A DNA stretch of 64,000 bases from NCBI GenBank assembly GCA_027483245.1, contig JAIXVB010000279.1, positions 9,847 to 73,846 on the forward strand, read 5' to 3'. The notes below the pieces were generated by a model, which saw only the letters and a list, made by a program, of their open reading frames with translations, did no database searches and had not been told where the DNA came from. This stretch comes from Verrucomicrobiaceae bacterium. GTDB lineage: Bacteria; Verrucomicrobiota; Verrucomicrobiia; Verrucomicrobiales; Verrucomicrobiaceae. Every line of letters starts with the position of its first letter. Position 1 is the stretch's first letter. The translations under genes and the position numbers were made by a program. Shown here piece after piece: positions 1,865 through 54,192 of this stretch.

Positions 1865-4800
1865 AACCGATGCCCGCCAAATCCAAGACCACTGCGGTAA
1901 GCAACGGCAGCGCCAACGTCAGGGTCTCCGACCTGATGCATGTCAATCCGCGTTTCAGAAAATCCGTCCAGATAGAGCTGGACTTCCACGACCGTAATTC
2001 GACCTCCGGCTACGTTGCCACGGAGTTCGTCGTCCAAACCTTCAACTGGATACTTCCCGCCTTCGCCAGGGGAAGCACCCAGCGTGCATGGCGCCTCACG
2101 GGTGACTACGGCAGTGGTAAATCCGCATTTGTGCTCGCTCTTGCAAAAGCTGCCTGTGGCAAACAAAGTGAAATTCCCGTCGCCTTGAGGGGAAAAATAA
2201 GTACAGGCCTCCATCCCGTATTTGTAACCGGCGACCGCGAGCCTCTTCACGAGAGCATCGGCAAAGCGGTGATCAACCAGGTCCCCGGCTATTCGAAACG
2301 CCAGGTTCCGTCCAATACCCCACAGATGATAGCACTTCTGGAGAAGGCCCATAAGGACAGTGACCGGGGGATATTCCTTGTGCTGGATGAACTTGGAAAA
2401 AACCTGGAGTATGCGATGATGGAGCCTGCCAGCACCGACGTTTACGTCCTCCAACGGCTGGCCGAAATGTCTTCACGCTCCAACGACAAACCCTTTGTCG
2501 TCATAGCGATCCTTCACATGGGCATTGGCGCTTATACCAACGATTTGGACTCCACCACGCGCAGAGAATGGGATAAGGTGGCCGGTCGTTTCGACGAATT
2601 GCTCTTTCAACATCCGTTCGAACAAACCGTCCAGCTTTGCGCGGAGGCTATCGGGCTGGAAACGGACCGGTTGCCTCCAAGGTTCATTGAAGAAGCTTCC
2701 CGCACCATGGAATGGGCTGTGGAGGATGGTCTTTATGGAAGCGCCCCCGCCCAAACGCTTCGTGAAGTGGCTCCCAGGATTTTCCCTCTTCACCCTGTAG
2801 CCTTGCCTCCGCTAATGAACCTCCTTCGCAGGTTCTGTCAGAACGAGCGTTCCCTCTTCAGCTTCCTATCCGGTCACGAATCTGCCGCTTTACAGGAAGT
2901 CGCCGGACTGGAAATCGAGAAAGCAAGGTTCTTCCGCCTCGCCGATTTATACAACTACGTGCGCCAAAACATAGCGCACACGATGACAAATGGCAGAGCG
3001 ACTCATTGGCGGATCATTGAGTCTGTCGTGAGAAAGGTTGAAGATCCGGAAGAGGTGAATTGTCTGAAGTCCATAGGCATTCTCAATCTGCTTGATGACG
3101 ATGACATGCTCGCGACCCGTCAGATGCTCATCCGAGCGATGGGTGCAAAGACCCCTGGCGAGCAGACCTTCCTGTCAAGGCTAATTGATAGGTTGAAAGA
3201 GAAGAAACTTCTCTTCGAGCGCAGCGCTGTCCGCGGCTTCGCTTTGTGGCCGCACAGCAGTGTTCACCTTGATGATGCATTCGCCGACGCGAAAAAAGAA
3301 ATTGGAGCTCATACCGAGCCCATGCGCTTGGTTGCTTCCAAATTGGAAGGCCGCCAGATCGTAGCCCGACGCCATTATATCGAGACCGGCAACCTCCGTC
3401 ATTTCGAGCTGCAATTCCTTCCAGCCAAAGATTACGAACGTTTTTGCGGGGCTGGCCCCAAGGCGAGCTATGGGAATGCGGACGGATTCGTCGTCATCTT
3501 CCTTCCGGAAAATGAACGCGAACATCGTCAGATGCTCAATACCCTGAAAAGTGGGGCTGTTTATCCTAGTGATTCAGTGCTTGTAGGGCTTTCCCGCCCG
3601 CCGCTCGACCTGCTCGGCATCTCGAAAGACCTTCAAGCCTGGCAGTTCCTCCAAACCAATCTGAAAGAACTTTCGTCAGACGAATTCGCCCGGCGTGAAC
3701 TTCGGGGCCAAATCCGTATTGCCAAGGAGCGTCTCGATCATCAGATCGACCAGCTTCTGGGATGGAATCATAACCCGCGTCTCGTCTCGTGGTTCCGCAA
3801 AGGACACCCTGACGAACTCGAGCCAGATGGTCTGAGCAGTAAGCTGTCGCAGATCTGCGAGGAAATTTACAAGCGGTGTCCGAAGATCACCAACGAGTTG
3901 ATCAACCGCCGGGTCACCAGCTCTGCCGCTTCCCGCGCACGAACTGCTCTCATTGACGCCATCGCGATGAAGCCCGGCGCCGAGTATCTGGGCATGGATG
4001 ATTCAAAGAATCCGCCGGAAATGGCGATCTACCTTTCTGTCCTAAGAGCCGGCAACCTTCACATAAAAGGGGAAGACGGGATTTGGAAATTCGTTTTTCC
4101 GTCAAAGGCAGACGATCACTGCAGATTGCTCCCTGCTTTTGAAACCATCGAGAAGATCCTGAAACAGCACGACGCGCAGCGGGTCAAAGTTTCCGCCATC
4201 ATCGATGCCTTGCGGGACGCACCTATTGGAGCCCGAGATGGACTCATCCCCCTCATCCTTGCTCTTTACATCGCTGGACGGCGAAGCCAGACGGCCATTT
4301 TTGAAGACTCCACCTACACTCCCAATCTTGATGGTGATACTGCCCAACGACTGACGAAGGAGCCCGAGGCTTTCCAACTCCAGCACTGCGCCATTGAAGG
4401 GGACCGGATGGATACCTTTGATGCCATCGCCAAGGTCTTTAATGTCGAGAGGAGCTCCGATCCCGAGGTTCTAGACGTGGTCCGCCCGCTGATGGAGTTT
4501 GTTGCACGTTTGCCTGAATACAGCCGCTCCACGAAGAACCTCAGCAAAGAAGCCATCCGCGTCCGGACTATTCTCCTCGCGGCCCGAGACCCCGTCCAGT
4601 TGATCTTCCGCGATCTCCCTGAAGCACTACAGGGAGAAGGCGACAAGGTGCCTCTTGGGACTAAGGTCGCCCACTTGGTCGGTGAACTCAGTAGCAGCTA
4701 CGACGCGCTGCTTAGCCGCCTTTCCGCTTCGATCACCGAAGCATTTGGCACCAAAACAAAAATAGGCGACTTCCGCAAAGAACTTTCTGCACGATCCAAA

Positions 4801-5238
4801 GCTACAGCAAAACACGTGGTGGAAAGCGACCTCAAGTCTTTCGTCCTTCGCATCGGAGACGACGGACTGGACCTCCGGCAATGGCTCGAATCGATGGCCA
4901 ATCACCTTAGCAAGAAATCAGCAGTCCGGTGGGGCGACCCGGATGAGGAGGTATTCAACCAAAGGCTCATCGCATTCACCCAACGGATGCTCAGGACTGA
5001 AGCCGCCCAAGGCGACGTTACAAGGACCAAGATGGAAGGCGCTGGCGACCGGCTTGTCCGTGTTATACTCACCCAACCTGATGGTCACGAGCACGGTCAG
5101 CTTTTCTATTGGAGCGAAGCCGAGGAAGCCAAGGTTTCCGAGATAGAGCAACAAATCACCGCATTGATTCACAAACATGGGCGCGCCGGACTTGGTGCGA
5201 CTGCAAAGGCCCTCTGGGCGCATCTCCGAGACCAATGA
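1861..5238 (+). CDS. sspC: SspC-like P-loop ATPase (1125 aa)
   Basis: Walker A GDYGSGKS, Walker B FLVLDELGK, FCQNERSLFSFL motif; GTGA overlap with the upstream stop. Confidence 0.83.
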   Translation: MKPMPAKSKTTAVSNGSANVRVSDLMHVNPRFRKSVQIELDFHDRNSTSGYVATEFVVQTFNWILPAFARGSTQRAWRLTGDYGSGKSAFVLALAKAACGKQSEIPVALRGKISTGLHPVFVTGDREPLHESIGKAVINQVPGYSKRQVPSNTPQMIALLEKAHKDSDRGIFLVLDELGKNLEYAMMEPASTDVYVLQRLAEMSSRSNDKPFVVIAILHMGIGAYTNDLDSTTRREWDKVAGRFDELLFQHPFEQTVQLCAEAIGLETDRLPPRFIEEASRTMEWAVEDGLYGSAPAQTLREVAPRIFPLHPVALPPLMNLLRRFCQNERSLFSFLSGHESAALQEVAGLEIEKARFFRLADLYNYVRQNIAHTMTNGRATHWRIIESVVRKVEDPEEVNCLKSIGILNLLDDDDMLATRQMLIRAMGAKTPGEQTFLSRLIDRLKEKKLLFERSAVRGFALWPHSSVHLDDAFADAKKEIGAHTEPMRLVASKLEGRQIVARRHYIETGNLRHFELQFLPAKDYERFCGAGPKASYGNADGFVVIFLPENEREHRQMLNTLKSGAVYPSDSVLVGLSRPPLDLLGISKDLQAWQFLQTNLKELSSDEFARRELRGQIRIAKERLDHQIDQLLGWNHNPRLVSWFRKGHPDELEPDGLSSKLSQICEEIYKRCPKITNELINRRVTSSAASRARTALIDAIAMKPGAEYLGMDDSKNPPEMAIYLSVLRAGNLHIKGEDGIWKFVFPSKADDHCRLLPAFETIEKILKQHDAQRVKVSAIIDALRDAPIGARDGLIPLILALYIAGRRSQTAIFEDSTYTPNLDGDTAQRLTKEPEAFQLQHCAIEGDRMDTFDAIAKVFNVERSSDPEVLDVVRPLMEFVARLPEYSRSTKNLSKEAIRVRTILLAARDPVQLIFRDLPEALQGEGDKVPLGTKVAHLVGELSSSYDALLSRLSASITEAFGTKTKIGDFRKELSARSKATAKHVVESDLKSFVLRIGDDGLDLRQWLESMANHLSKKSAVRWGDPDEEVFNQRLIAFTQRMLRTEAAQGDVTRTKMEGAGDRLVRVILTQPDGHEHGQLFYWSEAEEAKVSEIEQQITALIHKHGRAGLGATAKALWAHLRDQ

Positions 5239-6071
5239 CGACGAAATCTCCATTCAATCCCGGAGGGAAGCCGGTCCGCCACATCCTGAGCCTTTCCGGC
5301 GGCAAAGATTCAGCAGCGCTGGCGATCCACATGCGCGACCGCATTGAGAACATGGAATACATTTTCCATGACACCGACAAAGAGCTGCCGGATACCTACG
5401 ACTACCTTAACCGCCTTGAAGACTACCTCGGCAAACGGATCGTCAAAACAACCTTTGGAACGACGTTCGACGATCTGCTGCGACGTTATGGTGGCATGCT
5501 ACCGTCAAATCATAGACGATGGTGCACACGGATGATGAAGTTAAAGCCGTTCGAGGACTATATCGGCGAGGATGTTTGCATCAATTACGTGGGCATCCGC
5601 GCCGATGAAGCCCGCATCGGATATGTTAGTCACAAACCAAACATCCAGGCGGTCTTTCCATTTCGGGAAGACGGCATTGATTATGAAGGAGTTCAACGAA
5701 TTCTAACAGATTCAGGGATCGGCATGCCTCCCTACACAGAATGGGGGCGAACACGATCAGGCTGTTTCTTCTGCTTCTACCAACAGAAAATAGAATGGGT
5801 TCGACTCAAACAACAATACCCTGAATTATTTGAGCAGGCCAAGGCTTACGAGAAGCCAAATCGAGTCAACGGAAATGTATTTTACTGGTGTCAGGACGAG
5901 CCCCTCACCGAACTAGAAAAGCCTGAGCGGATGGCGGAGATTCAAAATAAATGGGAGATTCAGCAGGCACGAGCGGTGCAGAGCCGCAAAAATCTGCCTC
6001 TTGTGACTTCACTGGCAGGTTTACAGATTCATGAGCCAGCTTCTTCAGGCTGCCTGATATGTCATCTATGA
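5235..6071 (+). CDS. sspD: PAPS reductase family protein, SspD-like
   Basis: PP-loop SLSGGKDS, RWCTRMMK, RSGCFFCF, C-terminal CLICHL; ATG 5235 overlaps the sspC stop (ATGA), so preferred over the ORF-track start 5109. Confidence 0.87.
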   Translation: MTTKSPFNPGGKPVRHILSLSGGKDSAALAIHMRDRIENMEYIFHDTDKELPDTYDYLNRLEDYLGKRIVKTTFGTTFDDLLRRYGGMLPSNHRRWCTRMMKLKPFEDYIGEDVCINYVGIRADEARIGYVSHKPNIQAVFPFREDGIDYEGVQRILTDSGIGMPPYTEWGRTRSGCFFCFYQQKIEWVRLKQQYPELFEQAKAYEKPNRVNGNVFYWCQDEPLTELEKPERMAEIQNKWEIQQARAVQSRKNLPLVTSLAGLQIHEPASSGCLICHL

Positions 6072-6084
6072 TTGTAACCAGATA

Positions 6085-7269
6085 ATGCCTTCCAAATTGA
6101 TATACCTAGACAATAATGCCACGTCGCGAGTTTACGATGAAGTGGTCGCGGCTATGGCACCATATTGGTCGGATATTTTCTTTAATCCCTCGTCTGAGGC
6201 GGGTGAATTGCTTGGAGCGCAAGATGCTGTTTCAAGTGCGAAAAGAGAGCTTGCCACCCACCTTGGAGGAAGCCCAGAGGAATTCATTTTTACATCTGGA
6301 GCAACAGAGGCAAACAACTGGGTCCTGAAATCAGTATGCTCCGATTTCCTTCTACAGCGTGGCGGCTGCACTGTGGTAGTTTCAGCGGTTGAACACCCCT
6401 CGATTCGCAGCACGGCGATGGCTCTTGCGGAGAGCGATCAGCGCATCAAATGCATAGAAGCACCGGTGACATCAGATGGAGTGGTAGATCTCGCAAAGCT
6501 AGAGAAGCTAATCACCCCGGAGACTTGCATTGTCTCAGTCATGATGGCCAACAATGAAAGCGGCGTGATTCAACCCCTGGCAGAAATCGCAAAGCACGTG
6601 AAGGCACTCAATTCCAATTGTCTGATCCACACTGATGCCACTCAGGCAGTGGGTCGTATAGTTATTGACTTGGACGACGATCTCAGGTCCGTTGACTTGC
6701 TTTCGTTGTCTGTGCATAAAAGCCATGGCCCAAAGGGTATCGGTGCACTATTTATTCGAAACGGTATTAAGCTCACTCCTTTAATCCACGGTGGCGGCCA
6801 GCAAGTCGGTCTACGTTCTGGCACAGAGAATCCAGCTTTGGCAATGGGACTGGCAAAGGCCATCGCACTCACGGCTGATCGCCGAAAGCTTCAGGGCACA
6901 TCAGCAAAGGTAATGTCCACGAAAGAACTCTTTGAGACCAGATTGCAATCTGTCGTAGATGGAATTGGAATTCTGGGCAAAACCGTTGCACGCCTCCCAA
7001 ACACCAGCCTGCTGCTCCTGCCTGGGCTCAACGGGGGGGATGTTGTCAGCAGCCTCCTCCAAGAGGGCATCATAGTCTCCACCGGATCGGCGTGCGACAG
7101 AGGAAGTGATGCGCCCTCACACGTTCTCCTGGCAATGGGTATGGATTATAACGATGCTTTTGACGCGATTCGAGTCTCGATGTCGTCTGAAACCGAAGTG
7201 GTTGAAGTCTTTGCTCTGATTTCAGCCCTTCAAAAGCTTGTTACTTCACACAGCCTGCGTAGTATTTAA
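6085..7269 (+). CDS. sspA: PLP-dependent cysteine desulfurase (IscS/SspA/DndA-like)
   Basis: YLDNNAT, FTSGATEANN, HTDATQAVG, SVHKSHGPKGIGAL (PLP lysine), STGSAC (catalytic Cys); sspA name assigned from context. Confidence 0.9.
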   Translation: MPSKLIYLDNNATSRVYDEVVAAMAPYWSDIFFNPSSEAGELLGAQDAVSSAKRELATHLGGSPEEFIFTSGATEANNWVLKSVCSDFLLQRGGCTVVVSAVEHPSIRSTAMALAESDQRIKCIEAPVTSDGVVDLAKLEKLITPETCIVSVMMANNESGVIQPLAEIAKHVKALNSNCLIHTDATQAVGRIVIDLDDDLRSVDLLSLSVHKSHGPKGIGALFIRNGIKLTPLIHGGGQQVGLRSGTENPALAMGLAKAIALTADRRKLQGTSAKVMSTKELFETRLQSVVDGIGILGKTVARLPNTSLLLLPGLNGGDVVSSLLQEGIIVSTGSACDRGSDAPSHVLLAMGMDYNDAFDAIRVSMSSETEVVEVFALISALQKLVTSHSLRSI

Positions 7270-7272
7270 TTT

Positions 7273-9711
7273 ATGGGTATAGAATTTAAAGCAAGAGTTT
7301 TGCTCGAGCTTGGAGCAGAGTTGATAAGCTCTGACGCAGTGGCATTTTACGAACTGATCAAGAATGCGATCGACGCCGGCTCTCCATCGGTCACTGTCTC
7401 AATACATGTAGCGTTACAATTCTCGGCGTATCAGGCACTACAAGAAGAACTGGCAGGGCACAGCCTATCCGGCTTCGATGGCAGAATTTTTCACGAAAGG
7501 GTCTGCGCATCCATGGAGGCCGACGCCCAAGAAGAAGTACGAGACGACTTTTTAACCACTTTCGGACACCCCCAAAGCGCGAAAGAAGCTAAGAAAGCAC
7601 TGACAGAGGCCTATTTGCGAGGAAGTTATATAGTCGTAGCTGACCATGGCCATGGAATGAATTCCGAGACCCTTCAGAAGGGGTATCTTACAATCGGAAC
7701 CCCTATGCGGCTTCTGTCAAAAAGTCGTTCAAATGAAGCCAATTGGAGCCACGAATCTGCACTCGGTGGGCAAACACTTGGCGAAAAGGGAATTGGTAGA
7801 CTTGCTGCAATGCGCCTGGGCCATTTCGTCCATGTGCGCACAGGCATGCAGGCGGATGCTGAAAATAAAAACACCCATTGGATGGAGCTCGAATTAGATT
7901 GGCGACCAATCTTCAAGGATCCAAATCTTGATTCATCTGCTTTAGATTATGAACCCCAACTGGGCTCAAAGAAGAATTCGCCGAAAGAGCACGGAACAAC
8001 GCTGACCATAAGGAGCCTGCAAGGTGATTGGCATACTGACAAAATTAGAGAGCTAGCAGAGACTCATCTTGCAAAGCTTTCCGATCCATTCGCTTCCGAT
8101 TTTATTCACGAACTGCTCAAGATTGAACTGCAGGGGGCAAAGGTTCCGTTGCCCGAGTTTGAAAATAACAAATTAAAAAAGGCAGACGCAATCTGCAAGG
8201 CACGGCTTCGCAAGGTGAAGGAGAATGCACTTCCCGACTCACCAGAAAAATTGGAGTTATTTATCGAGGTGGACTACCAACACTATCACGGTGCGCATAG
8301 GATCTGGAATCTCAGTGGCGAACACCTTGCAAGCTGCATCAAGGACCCCCCAGGTCGCCGGAAGAAGCCGAAGGCAAACGAATTGCTCCCCAACAGTGAG
8401 GCAGTCTTAGCATCGCTCCCAAAGCTCGGGCCATTCGAAATGGAATTTTATTGGTTCAACCGAGGTCGCATCATGCGAGAGGAGTTGGACGAATGGGAGC
8501 TCATCAAGGGCTTTGTGCGCAACTGGAGTGGCGGCTTATTGGTATACAGAGACGGATTTCGTGTATATCCATACGGCTCGCCTTCGGATGATTGGCTCGA
8601 TCTTGACCGGACCGCGCTGTCGGGTTCGGCCTACAAGCTAAATCGCGCTCAAATTATCGGTTTCCTGCGCATTTCTCAACAGGGCAATCCGGCTCTTCAG
8701 GATCAGACGAACCGCGAAGGATTCCGCGACTGTCCTGAAAAGGAGGCCTTACGCAGATTGCTACGGCATGTGATTGTCACGCACTGCCGACAGTTTCTGG
8801 AAGATACGCTAAAAAAGAATCTAAAGGAGCCGCCGGAGGAGATTGAATCGCTTGAGAAGAGAGTTAGTGACTCAGAGACCGTCGCTACAACAAAATTGTA
8901 TGAGCTTCAGAAAAGGGTTCCGGCCGAAGCTGAGCCAATCAATGAAATCATCCACCAGATTGGTGAAATTAGAGCAGCCTGGGAACGGGCAAAATCGACC
9001 ATCAAGGATCAAGAATCTGAGCTTGAGCAGTATGTTCATCTGGCTGGTGTTGGACTACAGGTTGAGTTCATCGCCCATGAACTCAGCAGAGTGACAGCCG
9101 ACGCTCTCAGATCCTTGAGAGATGGCGACGTATTGAAGGATGAATCGATCCGCCTCGGTTTGGAAATGCAGCTTAAGACGTTAGACAAGCGAATCAGGGT
9201 TCTAGATCTCCTTAGCATTCCTGGTCGGCAACGAAAGGGGATGGTCGAAATCGAAGACGTTGTGAAACTGCTCACTGAAATTCATGATGCGAAGATCAAA
9301 AGGCATGGTGTCGAGATTTCGATCATAAGATCATCCGATAAACCGTTTCGTGCTAAGGTAGAACAAGGCCAGATATTACAGATTTTGGACAACCTCTTTA
9401 GCAATTCATTTTACTGGCTCAATAATCGCTTTGATCGCTCAAAAGTGCCGACGATCACAATCACCCTGGACCCGCAGCAGAGATTGATCTCATTTGAAGA
9501 TAGCGGTCCAGGAGTGCAGCCTGACATGCAAGATGATATCTTCAAACCTTTCGTAACCACTAAACCCCCAGGGGATGGCCGAGGGCTTGGCCTTTTTATC
9601 TCCCGTAGGCTTGCCGAATACAATGATGCCACATTGGATCTTGGCCCTCCGGATCAGGATGGCAAGTTCCGTCGATTTGATCTTTCACTCAAGAATACGA
9701 AGAAGCCATGA
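7273..9711 (+). CDS. MORC/MutL-like GHKL ATPase fused to a C-terminal histidine kinase
   Basis: N-terminal GHKL boxes ELIKNAIDA, DHGHGM, GEKGIGRLA; C-terminal H-box FIAHEL, N-box QILDNLFSNS, G1 DSGPGV, F/G2 FKPFVTTK..GRGLGLFIS. Confidence 0.85.
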   Translation: MGIEFKARVLLELGAELISSDAVAFYELIKNAIDAGSPSVTVSIHVALQFSAYQALQEELAGHSLSGFDGRIFHERVCASMEADAQEEVRDDFLTTFGHPQSAKEAKKALTEAYLRGSYIVVADHGHGMNSETLQKGYLTIGTPMRLLSKSRSNEANWSHESALGGQTLGEKGIGRLAAMRLGHFVHVRTGMQADAENKNTHWMELELDWRPIFKDPNLDSSALDYEPQLGSKKNSPKEHGTTLTIRSLQGDWHTDKIRELAETHLAKLSDPFASDFIHELLKIELQGAKVPLPEFENNKLKKADAICKARLRKVKENALPDSPEKLELFIEVDYQHYHGAHRIWNLSGEHLASCIKDPPGRRKKPKANELLPNSEAVLASLPKLGPFEMEFYWFNRGRIMREELDEWELIKGFVRNWSGGLLVYRDGFRVYPYGSPSDDWLDLDRTALSGSAYKLNRAQIIGFLRISQQGNPALQDQTNREGFRDCPEKEALRRLLRHVIVTHCRQFLEDTLKKNLKEPPEEIESLEKRVSDSETVATTKLYELQKRVPAEAEPINEIIHQIGEIRAAWERAKSTIKDQESELEQYVHLAGVGLQVEFIAHELSRVTADALRSLRDGDVLKDESIRLGLEMQLKTLDKRIRVLDLLSIPGRQRKGMVEIEDVVKLLTEIHDAKIKRHGVEISIIRSSDKPFRAKVEQGQILQILDNLFSNSFYWLNNRFDRSKVPTITITLDPQQRLISFEDSGPGVQPDMQDDIFKPFVTTKPPGDGRGLGLFISRRLAEYNDATLDLGPPDQDGKFRRFDLSLKNTKKP

Positions 9712-48389: not shown

Positions 48390-48859
48390 TACGGCGATCC
48401 GAAAAAAGCCTGTCGCTGCACCTCGACCATGATCCAGCGCTACCGCGAGCGTATCAGCGGGCCGCTGCTTGACCGTATCGACCTCCATGTGGACGTGACT
48501 CTCGTGGACTACAGAGCTCTGTCCAGCACGGCTGCTGAGGAATCTTCCGAAGAGCCATTCGCCAACAAGTCGAACGGGTGCGCGAGGTGCAGACAGAGCG
48601 GTTCAGAGGCTTAAAAGCCACCCACACGAACAGCAGCAGGACGCCGCACCTCATTAACAAGCACTGCGAGCTAGATGCTGAATGCGCAGGTCTCCTGGAA
48701 CATACCATGAGCGAGATGAACTTCAGCGCCCGCGCCCACGACCGCATCCTGAAAGTTGCCCGAACCCTCGCCGACCTGAAAGGGGTGGAGAGGATCGACC
48801 CAGACAGTGTCCTGGAGGCCATCGGCTACCGCACTCTGGACAGGAATCTTTGGACATAG
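48390..48859 (+). pseudogene. comM: 3' fragment of comM/yifB (Mg-chelatase-like ATPase), frameshifted
   Basis: YGDPKKACRC..RYRERISGPLLDRIDLHV; frameshift near 48553-48556; then SARAHDRILKVARTLADL..EAIGYRTLDR. Confidence 0.92.
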
Positions 48860-48943
48860 CGGTAGCGCGTTAACGGCTTCCTGGCGCCTCCCTGGGCGGC
48901 AAAACTCATTGCGAAACGGGCCGTTTGGATTAACTGGCTACCA

Positions 48944-49528
48944 ATGGGCGACACCGAACGATCTGAGAACCACAAAGACAGCGAGCTAAGCGGGATTCTC
49001 TACACAAACGCCGCCCTGGCCAGCCTGCGTCAGACGCTAGCCAATGTGGCGACGAATTCGTGGATGTATGAAAACCTTGTCATTTCCGCTTTAGACGTGG
49101 CGCTGCCCCCGCCTCCTTTTTCACACCCTAACTGTGGCGTTCAGGCATTCAGGGCACTTTTTCCCCGCATGGAATCCGCCGTGCAAAGCATGTCCGAACA
49201 TGACAGCACCAGCAGTGGGATGAACAGGCGAAGCATGGAAGCTGCGCTCAAGAAGGCGGGCGGCAACTACCATGTGCTGCCACGGCAGCTCCCGAAGACA
49301 GGGCTAGCTTTGATCGAGTGGACCGGCACCTGGCAAGCCGAGGGTTTCTGGGGGAGTGACCTCAAACACACCCACTGGGTCGCAATCGCAGAGGGCTTTG
49401 TCTATGACATCAACTGGTCTGGCTGGCTGCCACGTCGAATATGGGAGGAAGTGGTGCTGGATGAGATGATCGCGAGTCTGCCCAAAACAACAGGCTGGCG
49501 TCCGCATACTGGCTACGAACTGGCATAA
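48944..49528 (+). CDS. Hypothetical protein, possible C39/papain-like fold
   Basis: PNCGV...HTHWVAI...VYDIN gives a Cys-His-Asp order. Confidence 0.45.
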   Translation: MGDTERSENHKDSELSGILYTNAALASLRQTLANVATNSWMYENLVISALDVALPPPPFSHPNCGVQAFRALFPRMESAVQSMSEHDSTSSGMNRRSMEAALKKAGGNYHVLPRQLPKTGLALIEWTGTWQAEGFWGSDLKHTHWVAIAEGFVYDINWSGWLPRRIWEEVVLDEMIASLPKTTGWRPHTGYELA

Positions 49529-49531
49529 CTG

Positions 49532-50650
49532 TCACGCCGCCGCAGGCAGCAGGAGCTGCCGACGAAAACCACCACCATCCGCAGCGAGACCCAGGCGCTC
49601 GTTATACCGCGCTCTTTGCGCGGCGATGTTCTGATCCAGTCTGGAACTCAGGGACGTTCCTTGCAAGGTCGGCTCAAGACGCCATCTCCATTTAGCGCCC
49701 CACTTGCGGAGAACCTGGCGCTTCATCGTCTTGATGAAAGGGTTTGCGTCGATCACCGTGAAGGAATCAAAACAGTCATCCAACTGCTGCAACCTGCCAG
49801 CCCCCGCAAGCATGAGCGGATGAAGCGCTCGCCCCAGCGCCTCCTGCAATGCTACAAGTTGAGCAAAGTATTCGTCACCGAAGTGCTTGTGCTCCGCGCC
49901 AGTTTGAAATTCAAGCGATACCAGCTTTGACTCAGGTTGCTCTTTCAGAACATCCCGCCAGCGGTTCCAATCGAACTGAGTGAGCGCGTTGAGGTGAAAA
50001 ACTGTCGGTATGCCCGCTGTGGTCATGCGCTCAGACAGCCGGAACATCCTGCCGAAGTTATAGAGGTTGTTGGTGCGCGGCACGTCCAGCATGAAAGAAA
50101 AGTTGGGCACGGTCATGGCGAGCGGACGCAGAGCCGCGATGGCATCCAGCAGGTGCCGACTCCGATGAACTTCCCAAAATGCTTCGATCCAACGGTCTGG
50201 GCACACTGAGGTGATGATGAACTGCGTCTCCCTCGAAAGCTTGAAGCTGCGCCGTACTTCATCGGGCGTGTTGTAAAGCACACGCGCACGCTTCAAACGA
50301 TCCTGAGTGATGATCCTGTGGAGCGGAATGGAGACGACTTCTTCATCCAGCAGCGTTGTCCGGCTGCCACCGTGGTCAATCTGCGGAACAAAGATCGGCA
50401 GGGGAGCTGAGTCAGGTGGGAGAACGCGACCTCTTGGCAGAGTATCCAGCCCCTTTACTTCAGAAACCTTGTCGGCGAAAGCCATCGCATTGGTGGGGCA
50501 GGTCATGTCACATCCGTGATGCACACACCAACTCGTGCAGCGGTCTAAGCACCCTCTCTGGAACCCATCTCCAGGCAATCCGCCGCACTGGTCTAGCCAG
50601 CCACACTCGGCGCAAGAAGGGGCAACGGCCCTAGTGATCGGGTAGAACAT
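49532..50650 (-). CDS. DUF4417-like protein with Cys-rich N-terminus
   Basis: Eight Cys within about 45 N-terminal residues; VPNFSFMLDVPRTNNLYN..AGIPTVFHLN resembles DUF4417. Confidence 0.55.
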   Translation of the reverse strand: MFYPITRAVAPSCAECGWLDQCGGLPGDGFQRGCLDRCTSWCVHHGCDMTCPTNAMAFADKVSEVKGLDTLPRGRVLPPDSAPLPIFVPQIDHGGSRTTLLDEEVVSIPLHRIITQDRLKRARVLYNTPDEVRRSFKLSRETQFIITSVCPDRWIEAFWEVHRSRHLLDAIAALRPLAMTVPNFSFMLDVPRTNNLYNFGRMFRLSERMTTAGIPTVFHLNALTQFDWNRWRDVLKEQPESKLVSLEFQTGAEHKHFGDEYFAQLVALQEALGRALHPLMLAGAGRLQQLDDCFDSFTVIDANPFIKTMKRQVLRKWGAKWRWRLEPTLQGTSLSSRLDQNIAAQRARYNERLGLAADGGGFRRQLLLPAAA

Positions 50651-50652
50651 AA

Positions 50653-51075
50653 TCAGGGGTTCTTGAACGGCCTTTTTGATCTGACGCGAAAAACTCCATC
50701 AAATGAGGCTTCGCTTTCAACTACCACTGAAATGACGCCGTAGTGGTAATTCTTCCTCATCAACGTAGTGAGCAACTCCGCGTCTTCTGGAAGAACATGC
50801 GCGATGAACTTGCCGCGCTGCATCAGGCGGACATCGGATTCTGAGAAGGCGCGTGCAACGAGAGGAACTCCAGGTCTGAGGTCAGCAGCATCCTCGGTGA
50901 GCTGGCAGTTGAAGTGGTGAGTGACGCAGTCTCCTTTCACTCGGGTGAGGAGGTCAGGAGTGGACAACTCAGCCTCACAAGCGACATCGCTTTTTTGCTG
51001 GAACTGTTCGGCTTTTAAACGAATAAAGTTTAGGCCCATAATGTGAACTTTTTGGCTAGGGGTGAATAGATCCAA
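50653..51075 (-). CDS. Small hypothetical protein
   Basis: Tightly packed in the operon; alternative start ATG 51039. Confidence 0.6.
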   Translation of the reverse strand: MDLFTPSQKVHIMGLNFIRLKAEQFQQKSDVACEAELSTPDLLTRVKGDCVTHHFNCQLTEDAADLRPGVPLVARAFSESDVRLMQRGKFIAHVLPEDAELLTTLMRKNYHYGVISVVVESEASFDGVFRVRSKRPFKNP

Positions 51076-51653
51076 TACTTGCCGCTGCGCTGACGGGTGA
51101 CGAGCCGCACGGCAAACAGATCAGCCAGTCTGTTGCTCCAGCCGTTCACCGTGATGCGCTCATCAGACGTGTCAGCAAGTTGTGCCGCAGTCGCCTCGCC
51201 AAGCGCGCAGAGCGATCTCAGAGTGGAAAAGAGGAAGCCATCAAGCCTGCCGAGGATGGCAGCCTTCTCAATCTTTGGCGGAGAGCCTTCGGTCACCAAA
51301 AGGACAGGTAGGTTTCGCTGCGCAAAGAAGTCATGGACCTCATCCGCGACCTCCGGCGAGCACCCGGTCAGCACAGGAAAAATCGGCAAGGGGCGCAAAG
51401 CCCATGGATCGGTCAGACTGCTGGCGGGGGTCTGTTTCGCGTCCGCTTGCCCGCAGAGTAGCGCCCACAGCACCGTCGCCCGCAAGTAGCTCCCGGTGAT
51501 ACTTTCCGCCTTGCTCAAATCTATAGCTAGAACAACGCTTCTATCGGAGCACTCTTGAAGTTGACGCATCACTGGCTCCATGTCTGCCTGCGCAGAGGAA
51601 GCACCAAAAAGATGCTGACGACTTGATTTGAGCTGAAGAATCGAAAGCCCCAT
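51030..51653 (-). CDS. STAS-like domain plus C-terminal winged HTH
   Basis: VVLAIDLSKAESITGSYL (STAS-like); GEATAAQLAD...WSNRLADL..RLVTRQRSGKYWIYSP (wHTH). Confidence 0.6.
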   Translation of the reverse strand: MGLSILQLKSSRQHLFGASSAQADMEPVMRQLQECSDRSVVLAIDLSKAESITGSYLRATVLWALLCGQADAKQTPASSLTDPWALRPLPIFPVLTGCSPEVADEVHDFFAQRNLPVLLVTEGSPPKIEKAAILGRLDGFLFSTLRSLCALGEATAAQLADTSDERITVNGWSNRLADLFAVRLVTRQRSGKYWIYSPLAKKFTLWA

Positions 51654-51685
51654 GAATCATTCAATAACTGTACTTGGTGATTGAG

Positions 51686-52561
51686 TCAATTAGAAAACTC
51701 TATCTGTCGCTCCTCGGGAGCGTTTCTGAGATCACAAGCAAGGCTGACCTGCATACCGCGAAGTTGTGGTGAAGAAAAGAAAGCCGCCTCTCGCTGGTCG
51801 TCGCGCGGTCGCAACAGAACGGATGCATCATCGCTTCGCAGCCGGAGCATGGCATTCCGGTCCGCAAGCGCTCGAAGCACCTGCTTGAAACCTTCTCCCT
51901 CTCCCTGTCCATCCCTTCGGCTGGCGTGATCCACGATGATCGCCTTTAGCGCCTCAGTTGCGCTTTTTAGATGCCGCCAATTCCTTGAGGAGGCAAGGCT
52001 GGTGAAAGCCCCGATTCCAATGTCGGCGACACAGAAAGCGACATACCCATCTGCCACATGATAACCAGCCAGTCCGGTAAATTCATCGGAACAAGCTTGG
52101 GCGAGGCTGTGCTGGTTCACGTTGTCCGCCATTTCATGGAGAACTTTTGCCAAGGCCAAAGCAAAATCTTTGCTGAAACCTGCCTGTCCCATCGAGCGCG
52201 ACATTCGCTCCCGAACCAACTGAAAGTCTGTCCCTTGAATCGAGGCTGCATTCCGAATCCTGAAAAACTCCAACGATCTTGTCCCATGAATGTCTTCGGA
52301 GCAGTGCGCCTTGCTTATCCTGTGCCATTCAGTGAGCAACAGATTGAAGATTGGATGGCCCTCTCTCGCAGAAGCCTCCATCTCCGCCAAAAGGTTCGAT
52401 GAAGGTTTCTCTTCCATGGCCGACAGGAAAAGCTCCATCGCCCCCGAGAGCGTAAAACCACTGAAGCGAGCAAGGGAGGCTTTGGCTCCCTGCCCACGAG
52501 CAATCAACCGCCTGCAAGACTCAACGTTGTTGGAATCAAGAATCAAATTAGGAAGAGCCAC
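51686..52561 (-). CDS. Stand-alone GHKL/HATPase-like protein
   Basis: LHEMADNVNQHS (N-box), CVADIGIG (G1), GQGEGEGF (G2); no H-box. Confidence 0.68.
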   Translation of the reverse strand: MALPNLILDSNNVESCRRLIARGQGAKASLARFSGFTLSGAMELFLSAMEEKPSSNLLAEMEASAREGHPIFNLLLTEWHRISKAHCSEDIHGTRSLEFFRIRNAASIQGTDFQLVRERMSRSMGQAGFSKDFALALAKVLHEMADNVNQHSLAQACSDEFTGLAGYHVADGYVAFCVADIGIGAFTSLASSRNWRHLKSATEALKAIIVDHASRRDGQGEGEGFKQVLRALADRNAMLRLRSDDASVLLRPRDDQREAAFFSSPQLRGMQVSLACDLRNAPEERQIEFSN

Positions 52562-52729
52562 AGGCTCGAAGACAAATAAATGCCCTGTGCCTGCTTGGTC
52601 AAGAAAGTGAATGATAAGAATGGCAAAACAGCCAAGTCTATCGTCGTCCTACCCCAACCAAAACTTCCAGATCGGGAGCAAGTGCTACCAGCCTTTCTCG
52701 AAGCCGCCGAAACGGCACACGCCTCCAGA

Positions 52730-53053
52730 CTACCAGTTCCTCACGGACTTCACATCCACCCCGACCCGTTTGGCGAACTGATGCTTATCAAGCCCGAGGT
52801 GGCGTCTTAAAGCCAAAACAGCTTCCGCATGAGTATTGCAGGGAGGAGGGGATGGGGCATAGCCGAGGAAGTCAAAAATCTTTGGCCATTTCCCGATACC
52901 TGGTGAAACCCGGTCTCCTTCCCATCCATTGTAGGCCATGAATGAAATTCCAAACCGCGCACCCGCCTGTTCCTGGGGCAGCCCAAGATCGAGACGACAC
53001 TTCCTCAAATGCTCGCCTAGACTCCCCGGAGTTGCTGGATACCCCTTCACCAT
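52730..53053 (-). pseudogene. Second tandem XRE-HTH protein, probably truncated by a nonsense change
   Basis: Paralogue of 47838-48303 (GYPATPGSLGEHLRKCRLDLGL...LRRHLGLDK..VKSVRNW*); TAG falls where the paralogue has Glu (NWE). Confidence 0.65.
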
Positions 53054-53310
53054 CTTCTCATGCGGCCCAAAGCAACGTTTAGAACCCTGAATATAAGCGA
53101 TGAAAATAGGCAACGTAGCCAGAGGCTGTGGGGCAGATGTTTGCGGCTCTGATGCAAGCTTTGCAGATTGTGATGGATATCTTCCAGGATCGGAGCACTG
53201 CGCTCCTACCTGGCCGCCCGTGCTTCCATCCCAAACTTGTGCCCACTCTTTCGCCCTTTGACGGATCCATTTCAAAATTCATATTACGCCCCTGAAAAAT
53301 GCTATATATG

Positions 53311-54192
53311 TTATCGGAAAATAATCGAATGATAACGCCCCTCCTCATTCCAATAACAAATATCACGTTTAAACAATTCGTGGTTACCATCGGGATGCAA
53401 AAGGGTTAGGGTTCTACGCCTAGCTGCTAGATAGTAAAGCCAGCGACAGAGAAATTGCTCATCCTGACCATATGCCCCCCAGTGCGATAGCCCCACGTGT
53501 GTCAATTCTGGAAAGGCCTTTACCTCCTGAGCCATAGCCACATCCCGATTCATAATTATCCAAGCCTGGGCAGAAGCTTTAAATTCAAGCGGCCCTCGAA
53601 TACAACAACTACCATGGATTGACCTGTATATCAGCCGGTTCAATACATCGCGCCAATCACTTGTTGTAGTCCTAACAAGGAATACGCCCAAATCTAAAGC
53701 AACACGCACAATATTTTGATAATCACCTAACGCATAGTTGTCCGCTCCACGAGCTACGCACAATACATCTTCCTCGACTGGCAAGTACCTCCATAACATT
53801 CCAGGCATAGATTCCCAGGAGGCGTATTCCATCAGGAAAATCTCAACATCTAGGGGAATAAAGTCGATCAGAAACGATAGATCTCGGGCCAGATAAACTC
53901 TATGAACCCATCCCTCTGGTAAAATTTGGCGACACCCATCTAGAAATGGTAAAAAATAATTTCCCCACCAAGACACACTATGGCGACCCGACAAATGAGG
54001 CTCTTGTAGGGCCTTCAATGATGCAGGTCTATGCAACCAAAGATGAGGAGCATGCGTCCCCCAGTATAATGAGGTGGACACAACGACCTTTTTAGCAACC
54101 GGGATCACATTGATTCTATCTGAAACGCTAAAGAGCTCCGGCAGAGTATGCGCATGAGAATCACGAATAAACTGGGGGAATACATCTTGCAT
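53311..54192 (-). CDS. Uncharacterised glycosyltransferase-like protein
   Basis: VVSTSLYWG...GWVHRVY...GMLWRYLP...RGAD...GQDEQFL, matching the SFSLWG/GMFWRF motif family; function inferred. Confidence 0.45.
   Translation of the reverse strand: MQDVFPQFIRDSHAHTLPELFSVSDRINVIPVAKKVVVSTSLYWGTHAPHLWLHRPASLKALQEPHLSGRHSVSWWGNYFLPFLDGCRQILPEGWVHRVYLARDLSFLIDFIPLDVEIFLMEYASWESMPGMLWRYLPVEEDVLCVARGADNYALGDYQNIVRVALDLGVFLVRTTTSDWRDVLNRLIYRSIHGSCCIRGPLEFKASAQAWIIMNRDVAMAQEVKAFPELTHVGLSHWGAYGQDEQFLCRWLYYLAARRRTLTLLHPDGNHELFKRDICYWNEEGRYHSIIFR

Follow-up and report, generated by a model that had tools for sequence, protein, structure and literature searches.

A candidate conflict or stress cassette linking a CapK/CapS-like kinase and STAS-winged-helix pair to a cysteine-rich DUF4417-like barrel protein

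Genes and proteins of the cassette

We analyzed a stretch of 64,000 nucleotides from a Verrucomicrobiaceae bacterium (GenBank assembly GCA_027483245.1, contig JAIXVB010000279.1, positions 9,847 to 73,846), which is referred to as a whole as the window. A first-pass annotation had marked a tightly packed group of four genes in this window as a candidate conflict system, encoding a HATPase, a protein with STAS and winged helix-turn-helix (wHTH) domains, a small protein and a cysteine-rich DUF4417-like protein. These genes probably belong to an undescribed bacterial immune or stress system. The four open reading frames (ORFs), g1 to g4, are intact on the minus strand within positions 49532–52561, and their spacing is exactly as had been described, with a gap of 32 nt between g1 and g2, an overlap of 10 nt between g2 and g3, and a gap of 2 nt between g3 and g4 (Table 1). 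The composition of four genes is real but incomplete. Because a convergent gene, g5, has its stop codon 3 nt from that of g4 and is co-conserved with the other genes, the cassette is a five-gene unit in the lineage of the window, with a size of about 3.6 kb. The start of g3 was placed at the ATG that is used by all homologues, where the protein begins with MGLxFIR; an alternative TTG at position 51075 would give a protein of 140 aa.

Scans of Pfam and NCBIfam gave no direct match at E<=1 for g1 to g4 of the window, and no component of PADLOC-DB 2.0.0 matched g1 to g5 at E<=1. The sole PHROG match among these proteins was that of g1 to phrog_3364, a family of unknown function (E 5.5e-11). Since these direct scans gave nothing, domains were assigned at the family level, and their names rest on weak family-level matches, motifs, AlphaFold2 (AF2) models and the RefSeq names of relatives.

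The g1 protein consists of an apparently helical N-terminal domain (about residues 1–125) and a HATPase domain (about residues 126–291). The N box (E143, N147, H151), the G1 box (D180-x-G182-x-G184) and the G2 box (G222-x-G224-F) are invariant in 23 relatives, of which 10 match Pfam HATPase_c_2 (best E 3.6e-5), and the only meaningful match in a profile search of the PDB was a weak one to RsbW over the N box. The HATPase assignment is thereby upheld, and judging from these motifs g1 is a GHKL kinase of the SpoIIAB/RsbW class. Its first 125 residues or so appear from their sequence to be a conserved domain without detectable relative, as they gave no helix-turn-helix (HTH) or STAS signal in Pfam and nothing in the PDB profile search. 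A STAS domain in this region was considered and rejected, the hhalign probability against the STAS domain of g2 being 0.2%. It should be noted that the PDB profile matches of g1, its N-terminus, g3, g4 and g5 were mostly noise, and that matches to TNF and betaine-aldehyde dehydrogenase were rejected as chance. On a Sinorhizobium alkalisoli plasmid (locus L034), a g1-family kinase ORF (8054–8953, minus strand; profile E 6e-44) lies opposite a RefSeq "hypothetical protein" (8225–9124, plus strand), which suggests that the RefSeq ORF is annotated on the wrong strand.

For g2, the AF2 model (pLDDT 93.4, pTM 0.88) has an N-terminal domain of beta-alpha-beta-alpha-beta-alpha topology followed by a wHTH. 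The winged helix superposes in Foldseek on those of ArsR/SmtB, MecI/BlaI and MarR at about 2 Å over about 60 residues. Three of 16 relatives weakly match DUF4325 (DUF4325/STAS_2), and the RefSeq names of relatives are "DUF4325" or "STAS-like domain-containing protein", in agreement with the STAS and wHTH domains named in the first-pass annotation. S55, G17 and A18 are invariant among the 16 relatives. In the model, S55 caps the N-terminus of the second helix (residues 54–73), which is where STAS domains of the SpoIIAA type have their phospho-serine.

The model of g4 (pLDDT 87.5, pTM 0.87) shows a helical, cysteine-rich head (residues 1–65) on a (beta/alpha) barrel. All eight head cysteines that had been noticed before are present (C13, C16, C22, C34, C38, C42, C47 and C51), and seven are conserved across 131 full-length family representatives of at most 50% mutual identity; we suggest that the head binds a metal or Fe-S. 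In the same set, conservation of at least 90% was found for D152, E156, W159, P182, N183, S185, R201, H219, E247, T250, G251, R274, R311 and N341. The model places D152, P182–S185, H219 and E247 at or just past the ends of strands, as would be typical of the active sites of TIM barrels. The family is large: when 1.84 billion cluster representatives were searched with its profile, 1350 of them, counted as clusters at 50% identity, proved to be relatives at E<=1e-3, and 458 at E<=1e-30. Its relation to DUF4417 (PF14386), a family without known function, is distant. PF14386 is weakly matched by 9 of 27 g4 relatives (best E 0.0037), and a paralogue in the same genome scores 18.4 bits, below the gathering score of 28.9. 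The g4 protein of the window has no PF14386 match at E<=1 and was not found by PF14386 in a search of its own genome. Moreover, the PF14386 model spans 183 positions, whereas g4 has about 370 residues and an N-terminal cysteine head. Together with the RefSeq names of relatives, the weak matches bear out the label DUF4417-like, and by sequence we regard g4 as a distant but consistent branch of DUF4417 and not as a formal member of PF14386.

For the two remaining proteins, g3 and g5, neither Pfam nor the PDB gave a match. Although g3 is poorly conserved, its place is between g2 and g4 wherever a locus is complete, and its profile (16 members) finds g3 in six loci outside the set from which it was built (E 1e-8 to 2e-24). 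Its Cys45 is nearly invariant, and it is presumed to be a partner or adaptor of g4. The g5 protein belongs to an orphan family of 119 clusters without a Pfam domain, in which His144 is invariant and Cys64 (within CGPxAFA) and Asp155 are nearly invariant. These residues are 80 and 11 positions apart, a spacing that we take to be the papain/C39-like pattern, so that g5 is putatively a cysteine peptidase of this kind. The g5 gene is present in 16 of 21 complete cassette loci, and searches of the variants in Myxococcota and Alphaproteobacteria did not find it; it is a lineage-typical accessory. When loci were sampled from the side of g5, all three had g5 overlapping the 3' end of g4 by 60–115 nt. 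In two of these three loci, g5 is preceded and overlapped by a gene of 227–229 aa (L039, 5325–6014; L040, 5321–6004) with weak or faint matches to the Dam-type MethyltransfD12 family, a hint that an operon of a methyltransferase and g5 faces the kinase-DUF4417 operon.

Table 1. Positions of the cassette genes and of the candidate promoter in the window
Feature	Position	Strand	Size or placement	Assignment
g1	51686–52561	-	291 aa, GTG start	GHKL (SpoIIAB/RsbW-class) kinase-like protein
g2	51030–51653	-	207 aa	STAS-like domain and C-terminal winged helix-turn-helix; CapS-like
g3	50653–51039	-	128 aa from ATG	Small orphan, presumed partner or adaptor of g4
g4	49532–50650	-	372 aa	Cysteine-rich head and TIM-like barrel; presumed effector
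g5	48944–49528	+	194 aa	Convergent orphan; putative papain/C39-like cysteine peptidase
Candidate operon promoter, -35-like TTGACC inside TCTTGACC	52597–52602	-	About 36–41 nt upstream of the g1 start	

Conservation, mobility and neighborhoods

Because the same genes are seen together again in over 25 independent loci at 25–90% identity, their arrangement is far beyond chance. The hosts belong to at least five phyla and include Verrucomicrobiota, Planctomycetota, Acidobacteriota, Myxococcota and plasmids of Alphaproteobacteria. Homologues of g4 and g1 were initially found mostly in metagenomes, and in contigs and metagenome-assembled genomes (MAGs) from soil the sizes and order of 285-207-130-372 aa are repeated amid wholly different neighbors. 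A scan with one genome per species found 15 loci in Verrucomicrobiota, Bryobacteraceae, Chthonomonadaceae, a gammaproteobacterial MAG and Myxococcota, and with tblastn and profile searches g1-g2-g3-g4 were present in every one of these loci that was sufficiently long. The cassette is patchily distributed: only 6 of 401 sampled genomes of the phylum of the window carry the g4 family, which is absent from three genomes of the same genus and one of the same family in this sample. In each of the other five positive genomes the cassette is complete and includes the convergent g5, and the genome of the window itself has a second cassette on another contig, about 32% identical. Among sequenced plasmids, 44 records contain g4 homologues, named "DUF4417 domain-containing protein" in RefSeq. 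The nine closest of these, from Planctomyces, Rhizobium, Sinorhizobium, Aminobacter and Skermanella, are exactly those that have a g1 homologue, and this lies within about 1 kb of g4.

The kinase gene comes first (kinase, STAS, g3, g4) both in the window and at some 20 other loci. On the Aminobacter and Rhizobium phaseoli plasmids that were examined it comes last, after overlapping genes for the STAS protein, the small protein and the DUF4417-like protein, and in a Sinorhizobium plasmid variant it is convergent. The linkage of g1 to g4 which the first-pass annotation proposed to check by synteny is thus kept amid unrelated flanks, while the gene order is not kept on the alphaproteobacterial plasmids. 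Since the linkage persists despite the permuted order, it is strong evidence, at the level of sequence, for a functional unit.

The cassette is compact and, judging from sequence comparisons, horizontally mobile. A block of 4.7 kb (48372–53068) is 92% identical to that of a relative, locus L046, and its end is a breakpoint at which a ComM-like gene beside a paralogous XRE gene is truncated. The earlier description of the operon as lying between two element-end signatures is borne out only in part. The idea of a phage gene was dropped for the kinase-linked subfamily, as searches of phage genomes found no homologue of g4 and, for g1, a single marginal match.

The flanks of the cassette are unrelated between loci, and genes for restriction, helicases, conjugation and recombinases abound in them. 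At locus L004, a type III restriction-modification (R-M) system lies directly upstream of the cassette, together with a type IV secretion system and a relaxase, and type I R-M genes are among the neighbors at other loci. SNF2/DUF8437 helicases flank locus L001, and a serine recombinase and IS1595 flank locus L003. On the plasmids we found KwaB-like, PIN and DprA/PRTase genes with an integrase (Sinorhizobium), DUF499/DUF1156 and Trb genes (Aminobacter), and NACHT and AAA proteins (R. phaseoli). When 110 ORFs flanking 19 loci were compared with the two databases, PADLOC matches were to BrxH/DrmD/DrmA-like helicases, HmaA, GajB, PD-T4-6 kinases and mad6, and Pfam matches to ResIII, HsdR, N6_N4_Mtase, AbiEii, RadC, TrwC and IS66. 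Defence islands and mobile elements typically contain such genes, and the context of a conflict system that had been proposed is in this qualitative sense recovered across loci.

A candidate kinase-repressor switch

The closest described analogue of the g1/g2 pair is CapK/CapS (Chambers, Rani, Min, Villa and Corbett, EMBO J 2026; PMC13373217). CapK is an HTH-STAS-GHKL kinase that single-stranded DNA (ssDNA) activates, its STAS domain holding the ssDNA-binding Trp W68, and it phosphorylates Ser54 of the STAS-wHTH repressor CapS (structures 9Z71–9Z73). This serine is absolutely conserved at the start of STAS helix 2, and once it is phosphorylated the CapS dimer comes apart and repression of a downstream immune operon is lifted (PMC13373217). 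As in CapK/CapS, a gene for a GHKL kinase is followed at once by one for a STAS-wHTH protein with a conserved helix-2 serine, and the pair heads a mobile operon of immune type that is sometimes directly downstream of R-M genes (L004), the immune nature of the cargo being putative here. The g2 protein has the architecture of CapS and its key serine. A g2 profile aligns collinearly with CapS structures 9Z71/9Z72 over both domains, and Ser55 falls on the serine of the 9Z71 "DSSF" ("SSF" in 9Z71/9Z72), at an E of about 1.1 that makes the sequence similarity of g2 and CapS not significant; the PDB set behind Foldseek is older than these entries. Further differences are that g1 (291 aa), although a kinase of the class of CapK, has its orphan N-terminal domain, a different or unrecognisable sensor, where CapK has HTH-STAS, that the cargo is joined into the same translationally coupled operon, and that the alphaproteobacterial cassettes are permuted. 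By analogy, the g1/g2 pair may work like CapK/CapS, and it is a candidate member of that family. The first-pass statement that no named system has this composition now holds for the cargo only. The regulatory half is of a named kind (PMC13373217), whereas the effector half has no PADLOC match and is uncharacterised, its chemistry being a matter of inference. The main text of that paper does not name g3, g4 or g5, a term search of its supplementary tables, in which 49 "unknown" entries were not looked at one by one, gives none of them, and the cargo is absent from the searchable literature on DUF4417 and DUF4325.

The combination of HATPase and STAS domains had originally been compared to an anti-sigma/anti-anti-sigma partner switch, which would here control a sigma factor. 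The comparison is apt in that g1 has a HATPase_c_2-class kinase domain like SpoIIAB and RsbW, and that g2, like SpoIIAA and RsbV, is a STAS substrate candidate with the phospho-serine position. However, no sigma factor or PP2C phosphatase gene was found in the conserved unit or among the recurrent neighbors of the loci examined, g2 carries its own DNA-binding wHTH, and the cassette is mobile and patchy. As no such gene travels with the cassette, a classical partner switch is disfavored, and we consider it highly improbable; CapK/CapS is the better analogue.

Upstream of g1, the block TCTTGACC is invariant in four relatives (66–100% protein identity), while its surroundings diverge, and the TTGACC within it is a candidate -35 element. 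A generic scan for promoters and terminators gave counts no higher than in shuffled sequence and nothing significant, and Rfam found no RNA family within 47500–53500. A 9-nt inverted repeat spanning the g1 start of the window was considered as an operator and rejected, as it is not kept in relatives.

With moderate confidence, we read the cassette as a mobile conflict or stress cassette in which a CapK/CapS-like phospho-switch gates a new effector module directed at nucleic acid. A stress or infection cue would activate g1, which would then phosphorylate Ser55 in the STAS domain of g2. Phosphorylated g2, as a wHTH repressor, would let go of DNA and the operon would be de-repressed, a single promoter upstream of g1 driving it with translational coupling through g4. 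In this way g3 and g4 would be induced as cargo, g3 assisting or restraining g4, and g4, as a metal- or Fe-S-binding barrel, would most probably attack nucleic acid by base or glycosidic-bond chemistry resembling that of DpdA or tRNA-guanine transglycosylase (TGT). Since g5 is transcribed head-on into the 3' end of the operon, its expression would be opposed on induction, or lowered by read-through, and it may antagonise, mature or reset the module. Of this picture, the gene structure, co-conservation and mobility, the motifs of g1, the fold and invariant serine of g2 and the barrel and conserved polar residues of g4 are observed, whereas the phosphorylation, its cue, repression, the g4 substrate, how g5 folds and what it does, and a role in defence are deduced.

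Several observations weigh against this reading. No cassette protein of the window attains any curated family threshold. A CapK-type HTH-STAS N-terminus was not detectable in g1, so the input signal may differ from ssDNA. Among the relatives compared, there is no conserved operator palindrome upstream of g1. For the effector, the top 50 PDB fold matches of g4 include no TGT and are only generic TIM barrels with TM scores of 0.25–0.38. The enrichment in defence islands is qualitative, without a background rate. Finally, unlike capKS, which lies upstream of a distinct operon, g2 is not separated from g3-g4 by a promoter gap, and regulation could therefore be post-translational instead.

A precedent for post-translational control is VapKSC, in which a related kinase-STAS pair gates the PIN toxin VapC in this manner (PMC13373217). 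If the cassette worked in the same way, g4, with g3, would be a constitutive toxin held by direct binding of g2, g3 or g5 and released when g1 phosphorylates Ser55 of g2, transcriptional control being secondary. VapKSC is likewise a compact operon of kinase, STAS protein with conserved serine and effector near defence genes, and VapK lacks an N-terminal HTH. The translational coupling of g2-g3-g4 without an internal promoter gap agrees with this explanation, and the position of the kinase gene at the end of the alphaproteobacterial operons would suit stoichiometric complexes. On the other hand, the wHTH of g2 is complete, well formed and conserved, whereas VapS has only a short, inhibitory C-terminal helix. 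The effector also differs, being a cysteine-rich TIM-barrel protein with a small partner, and g3, g4 and g5 give no PIN signal. The toxicity of g4 is, moreover, purely hypothetical. We regard direct toxin control as unlikely.

The g4 family and the genes beside the cassette

The first-pass annotation had asked whether the barrel is TGT-like, an idea to which the BFVD matches in Foldseek lend moderate support. Against the PDB, only TIM (triose-phosphate isomerase), aldolases, PdxJ, galactanase and similar generic barrels were recovered, as stated above. Against BFVD, the best matches were uncharacterised phage proteins and several proteins annotated as queuine tRNA-ribosyltransferase, which are DpdA-like (E 4e-6 to 3e-3 overall; E 3e-4 to 3e-3 and TM 0.33–0.52 for those annotated as phage TGT). 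There was no match between g4 and TGT at the sequence level. In the models, g4 resembles DpdA and TGT in its (beta/alpha) barrel, in acidic residues at strand ends and in a putative cysteine-rich metal site. It differs in that this cysteine cluster is N-terminal, whereas the zinc site of TGT is a C-terminal CxCxxC...H, and in that there are no deazaguanine biosynthesis genes near the cassette.

On Streptomyces plasmids, a g4 relative is located directly after a ParB-N protein and before a NUDIX hydrolase. This trio was found at locus L036 (Streptomyces sp. NBC_01216 plasmid, 4562–7827) and on about 30 other Streptomyces plasmids; it adjoins replication-relaxation and transfer genes of large plasmids and shows the g4 family in a second context, one without the kinase. 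The Streptomyces relative shares with g4 the cysteine-rich head and the D152, PN[FY]S and PR motifs, but is without H219, E247 and H277. Conversely, the kinase-linked subfamily has the additional invariant histidine and glutamate residues and no ParB partner. DpdA needs the ParB-like protein DpdB. By this analogy, the similar pairing of g4 relatives with ParB-like proteins suggests DNA as the substrate of the wider family. Fusions of ParB and DUF4417 have been reported in phages (bioRxiv 10.1101/2025.10.10.680097).

This context raises the question whether the cassette is a regulated DNA-modification module of mobile elements, epigenetic or anti-restriction in nature, in which g4 would be a DpdA-like transglycosylase or another base modifier that marks the DNA of the element or the host, with no immune effector and with g1/g2 only tuning its expression. 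The BFVD neighbors annotated as phage queuine tRNA-ribosyltransferases, the ParB-N/DUF4417/NUDIX trio beside transfer genes, the phage fusions and the weakly Dam-like gene joined to g5 at two of the three loci sampled would all fit such a module. Nevertheless, precursor-biosynthesis genes (QueC/D/E-like or similar) and a ParB-like partner are absent from the kinase-linked cassettes and their surroundings. H219, E247 and H277, the additional invariant residues, suggest a chemistry that has diverged from that of the ParB-linked Streptomyces protein, and TGT is missing from the top 50 PDB fold matches. We judge such a module to be improbable.

The PDB fold matches taken at face value would instead suggest that g4 is a small-molecule TIM-barrel enzyme, similar to an aldolase, isomerase or hydrolase, and that the cassette is a stress or metabolic operon outside conflict, in which this enzyme is accessory cargo under the kinase-repressor switch. 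There is a parallel in genes linked to capKS, such as yegP or Bub, which may be general stress pathways (PMC13373217). These fold matches are weak and generic, however, with a TM score of at most 0.38. In addition, the conserved unit contains no transporter or pathway genes, R-M, helicase, conjugation and recombinase genes prevail in its flanks, and the ParB pairing of relatives points to DNA. A metabolic role seems to us quite unlikely.

A bolder version of the preferred reading, the phospho-switch gating a nucleic-acid-directed effector, is that g3-g4, with or without g5, form a new immune effector in which an Fe-S or zinc barrel of the DUF4417 family, akin to DpdA-like transglycosylases, excises or exchanges DNA bases, unleashed by the kinase-repressor pair, with g1 sensing infection by a new N-terminal domain and with g5, as a cysteine peptidase, setting or resetting the switch. 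We put this forward tentatively, as possible rather than probable. If true, it would provide the first function for DUF4417 and a new DNA-targeting chemistry in bacterial immunity, and possibly a new DNA-modifying tool. The cassette would extend the CapK/CapS-VapK/VapS family of kinase-STAS switches to a new kinase architecture and new cargo, and it places a large and uncharacterised enzyme family, the 1350 clusters of this distant DUF4417 branch, in a coherent genomic context for the first time. Because the cassette is small and self-contained and is carried by plasmids in cultured strains of Rhizobium, Aminobacter and Planctomyces, it is directly testable.

Some of the genes next to the cassette are shared by only a few loci. 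Paralogous XRE-family HTH genes flank the cassette of the window (47893–48375 and 52730–53275, both on the minus strand), and their DNA segments are 68–76% identical. The upstream gene, xreB, is kept beside g1 in the two closest relatives (L003 and L046) but not at loci that are less closely related, and could represent either an additional regulator specific to this lineage or the end of an element. On the other side, the Mg-chelatase/ComM-like ORFs of the window (48372–48859, plus strand) are a frameshifted 3' fragment of a gene that is intact at the same place upstream of g5 in L046 (4316–5851, 511 aa). As the homology to L046 stops at 48372, where the XRE gene 47893–48375 starts, a rearrangement or insertion must have truncated comM. 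ComM was considered as an integration target and rejected, as the intact gene of the relative merely adjoins g5 and the copy in the window was broken later.

At two independent loci (contig C258 of genome G000, L023:280–4986, and L045:2348–6856), the cassette is adjoined by a gene for a LexA-like S24 peptidase and by one for a polymerase of about 1400 aa in which Y-family IMS, PHP and a DnaE2-like alpha subunit are fused. This module is on the side of g5 in one locus and divergent from g1 in the other, and the presence of an SOS-mutagenesis-type module beside a putative DNA-damage-sensing switch may not be coincidental. In L046, whose cassette is the closest to that of the window, a ThiF (E1-like) gene is grouped with a small ORF and a Multi_ubiq gene (5917–8483) beside the ComM-like gene, a trio that looks like a ubiquitination-like operon of the Bub/Bil type.

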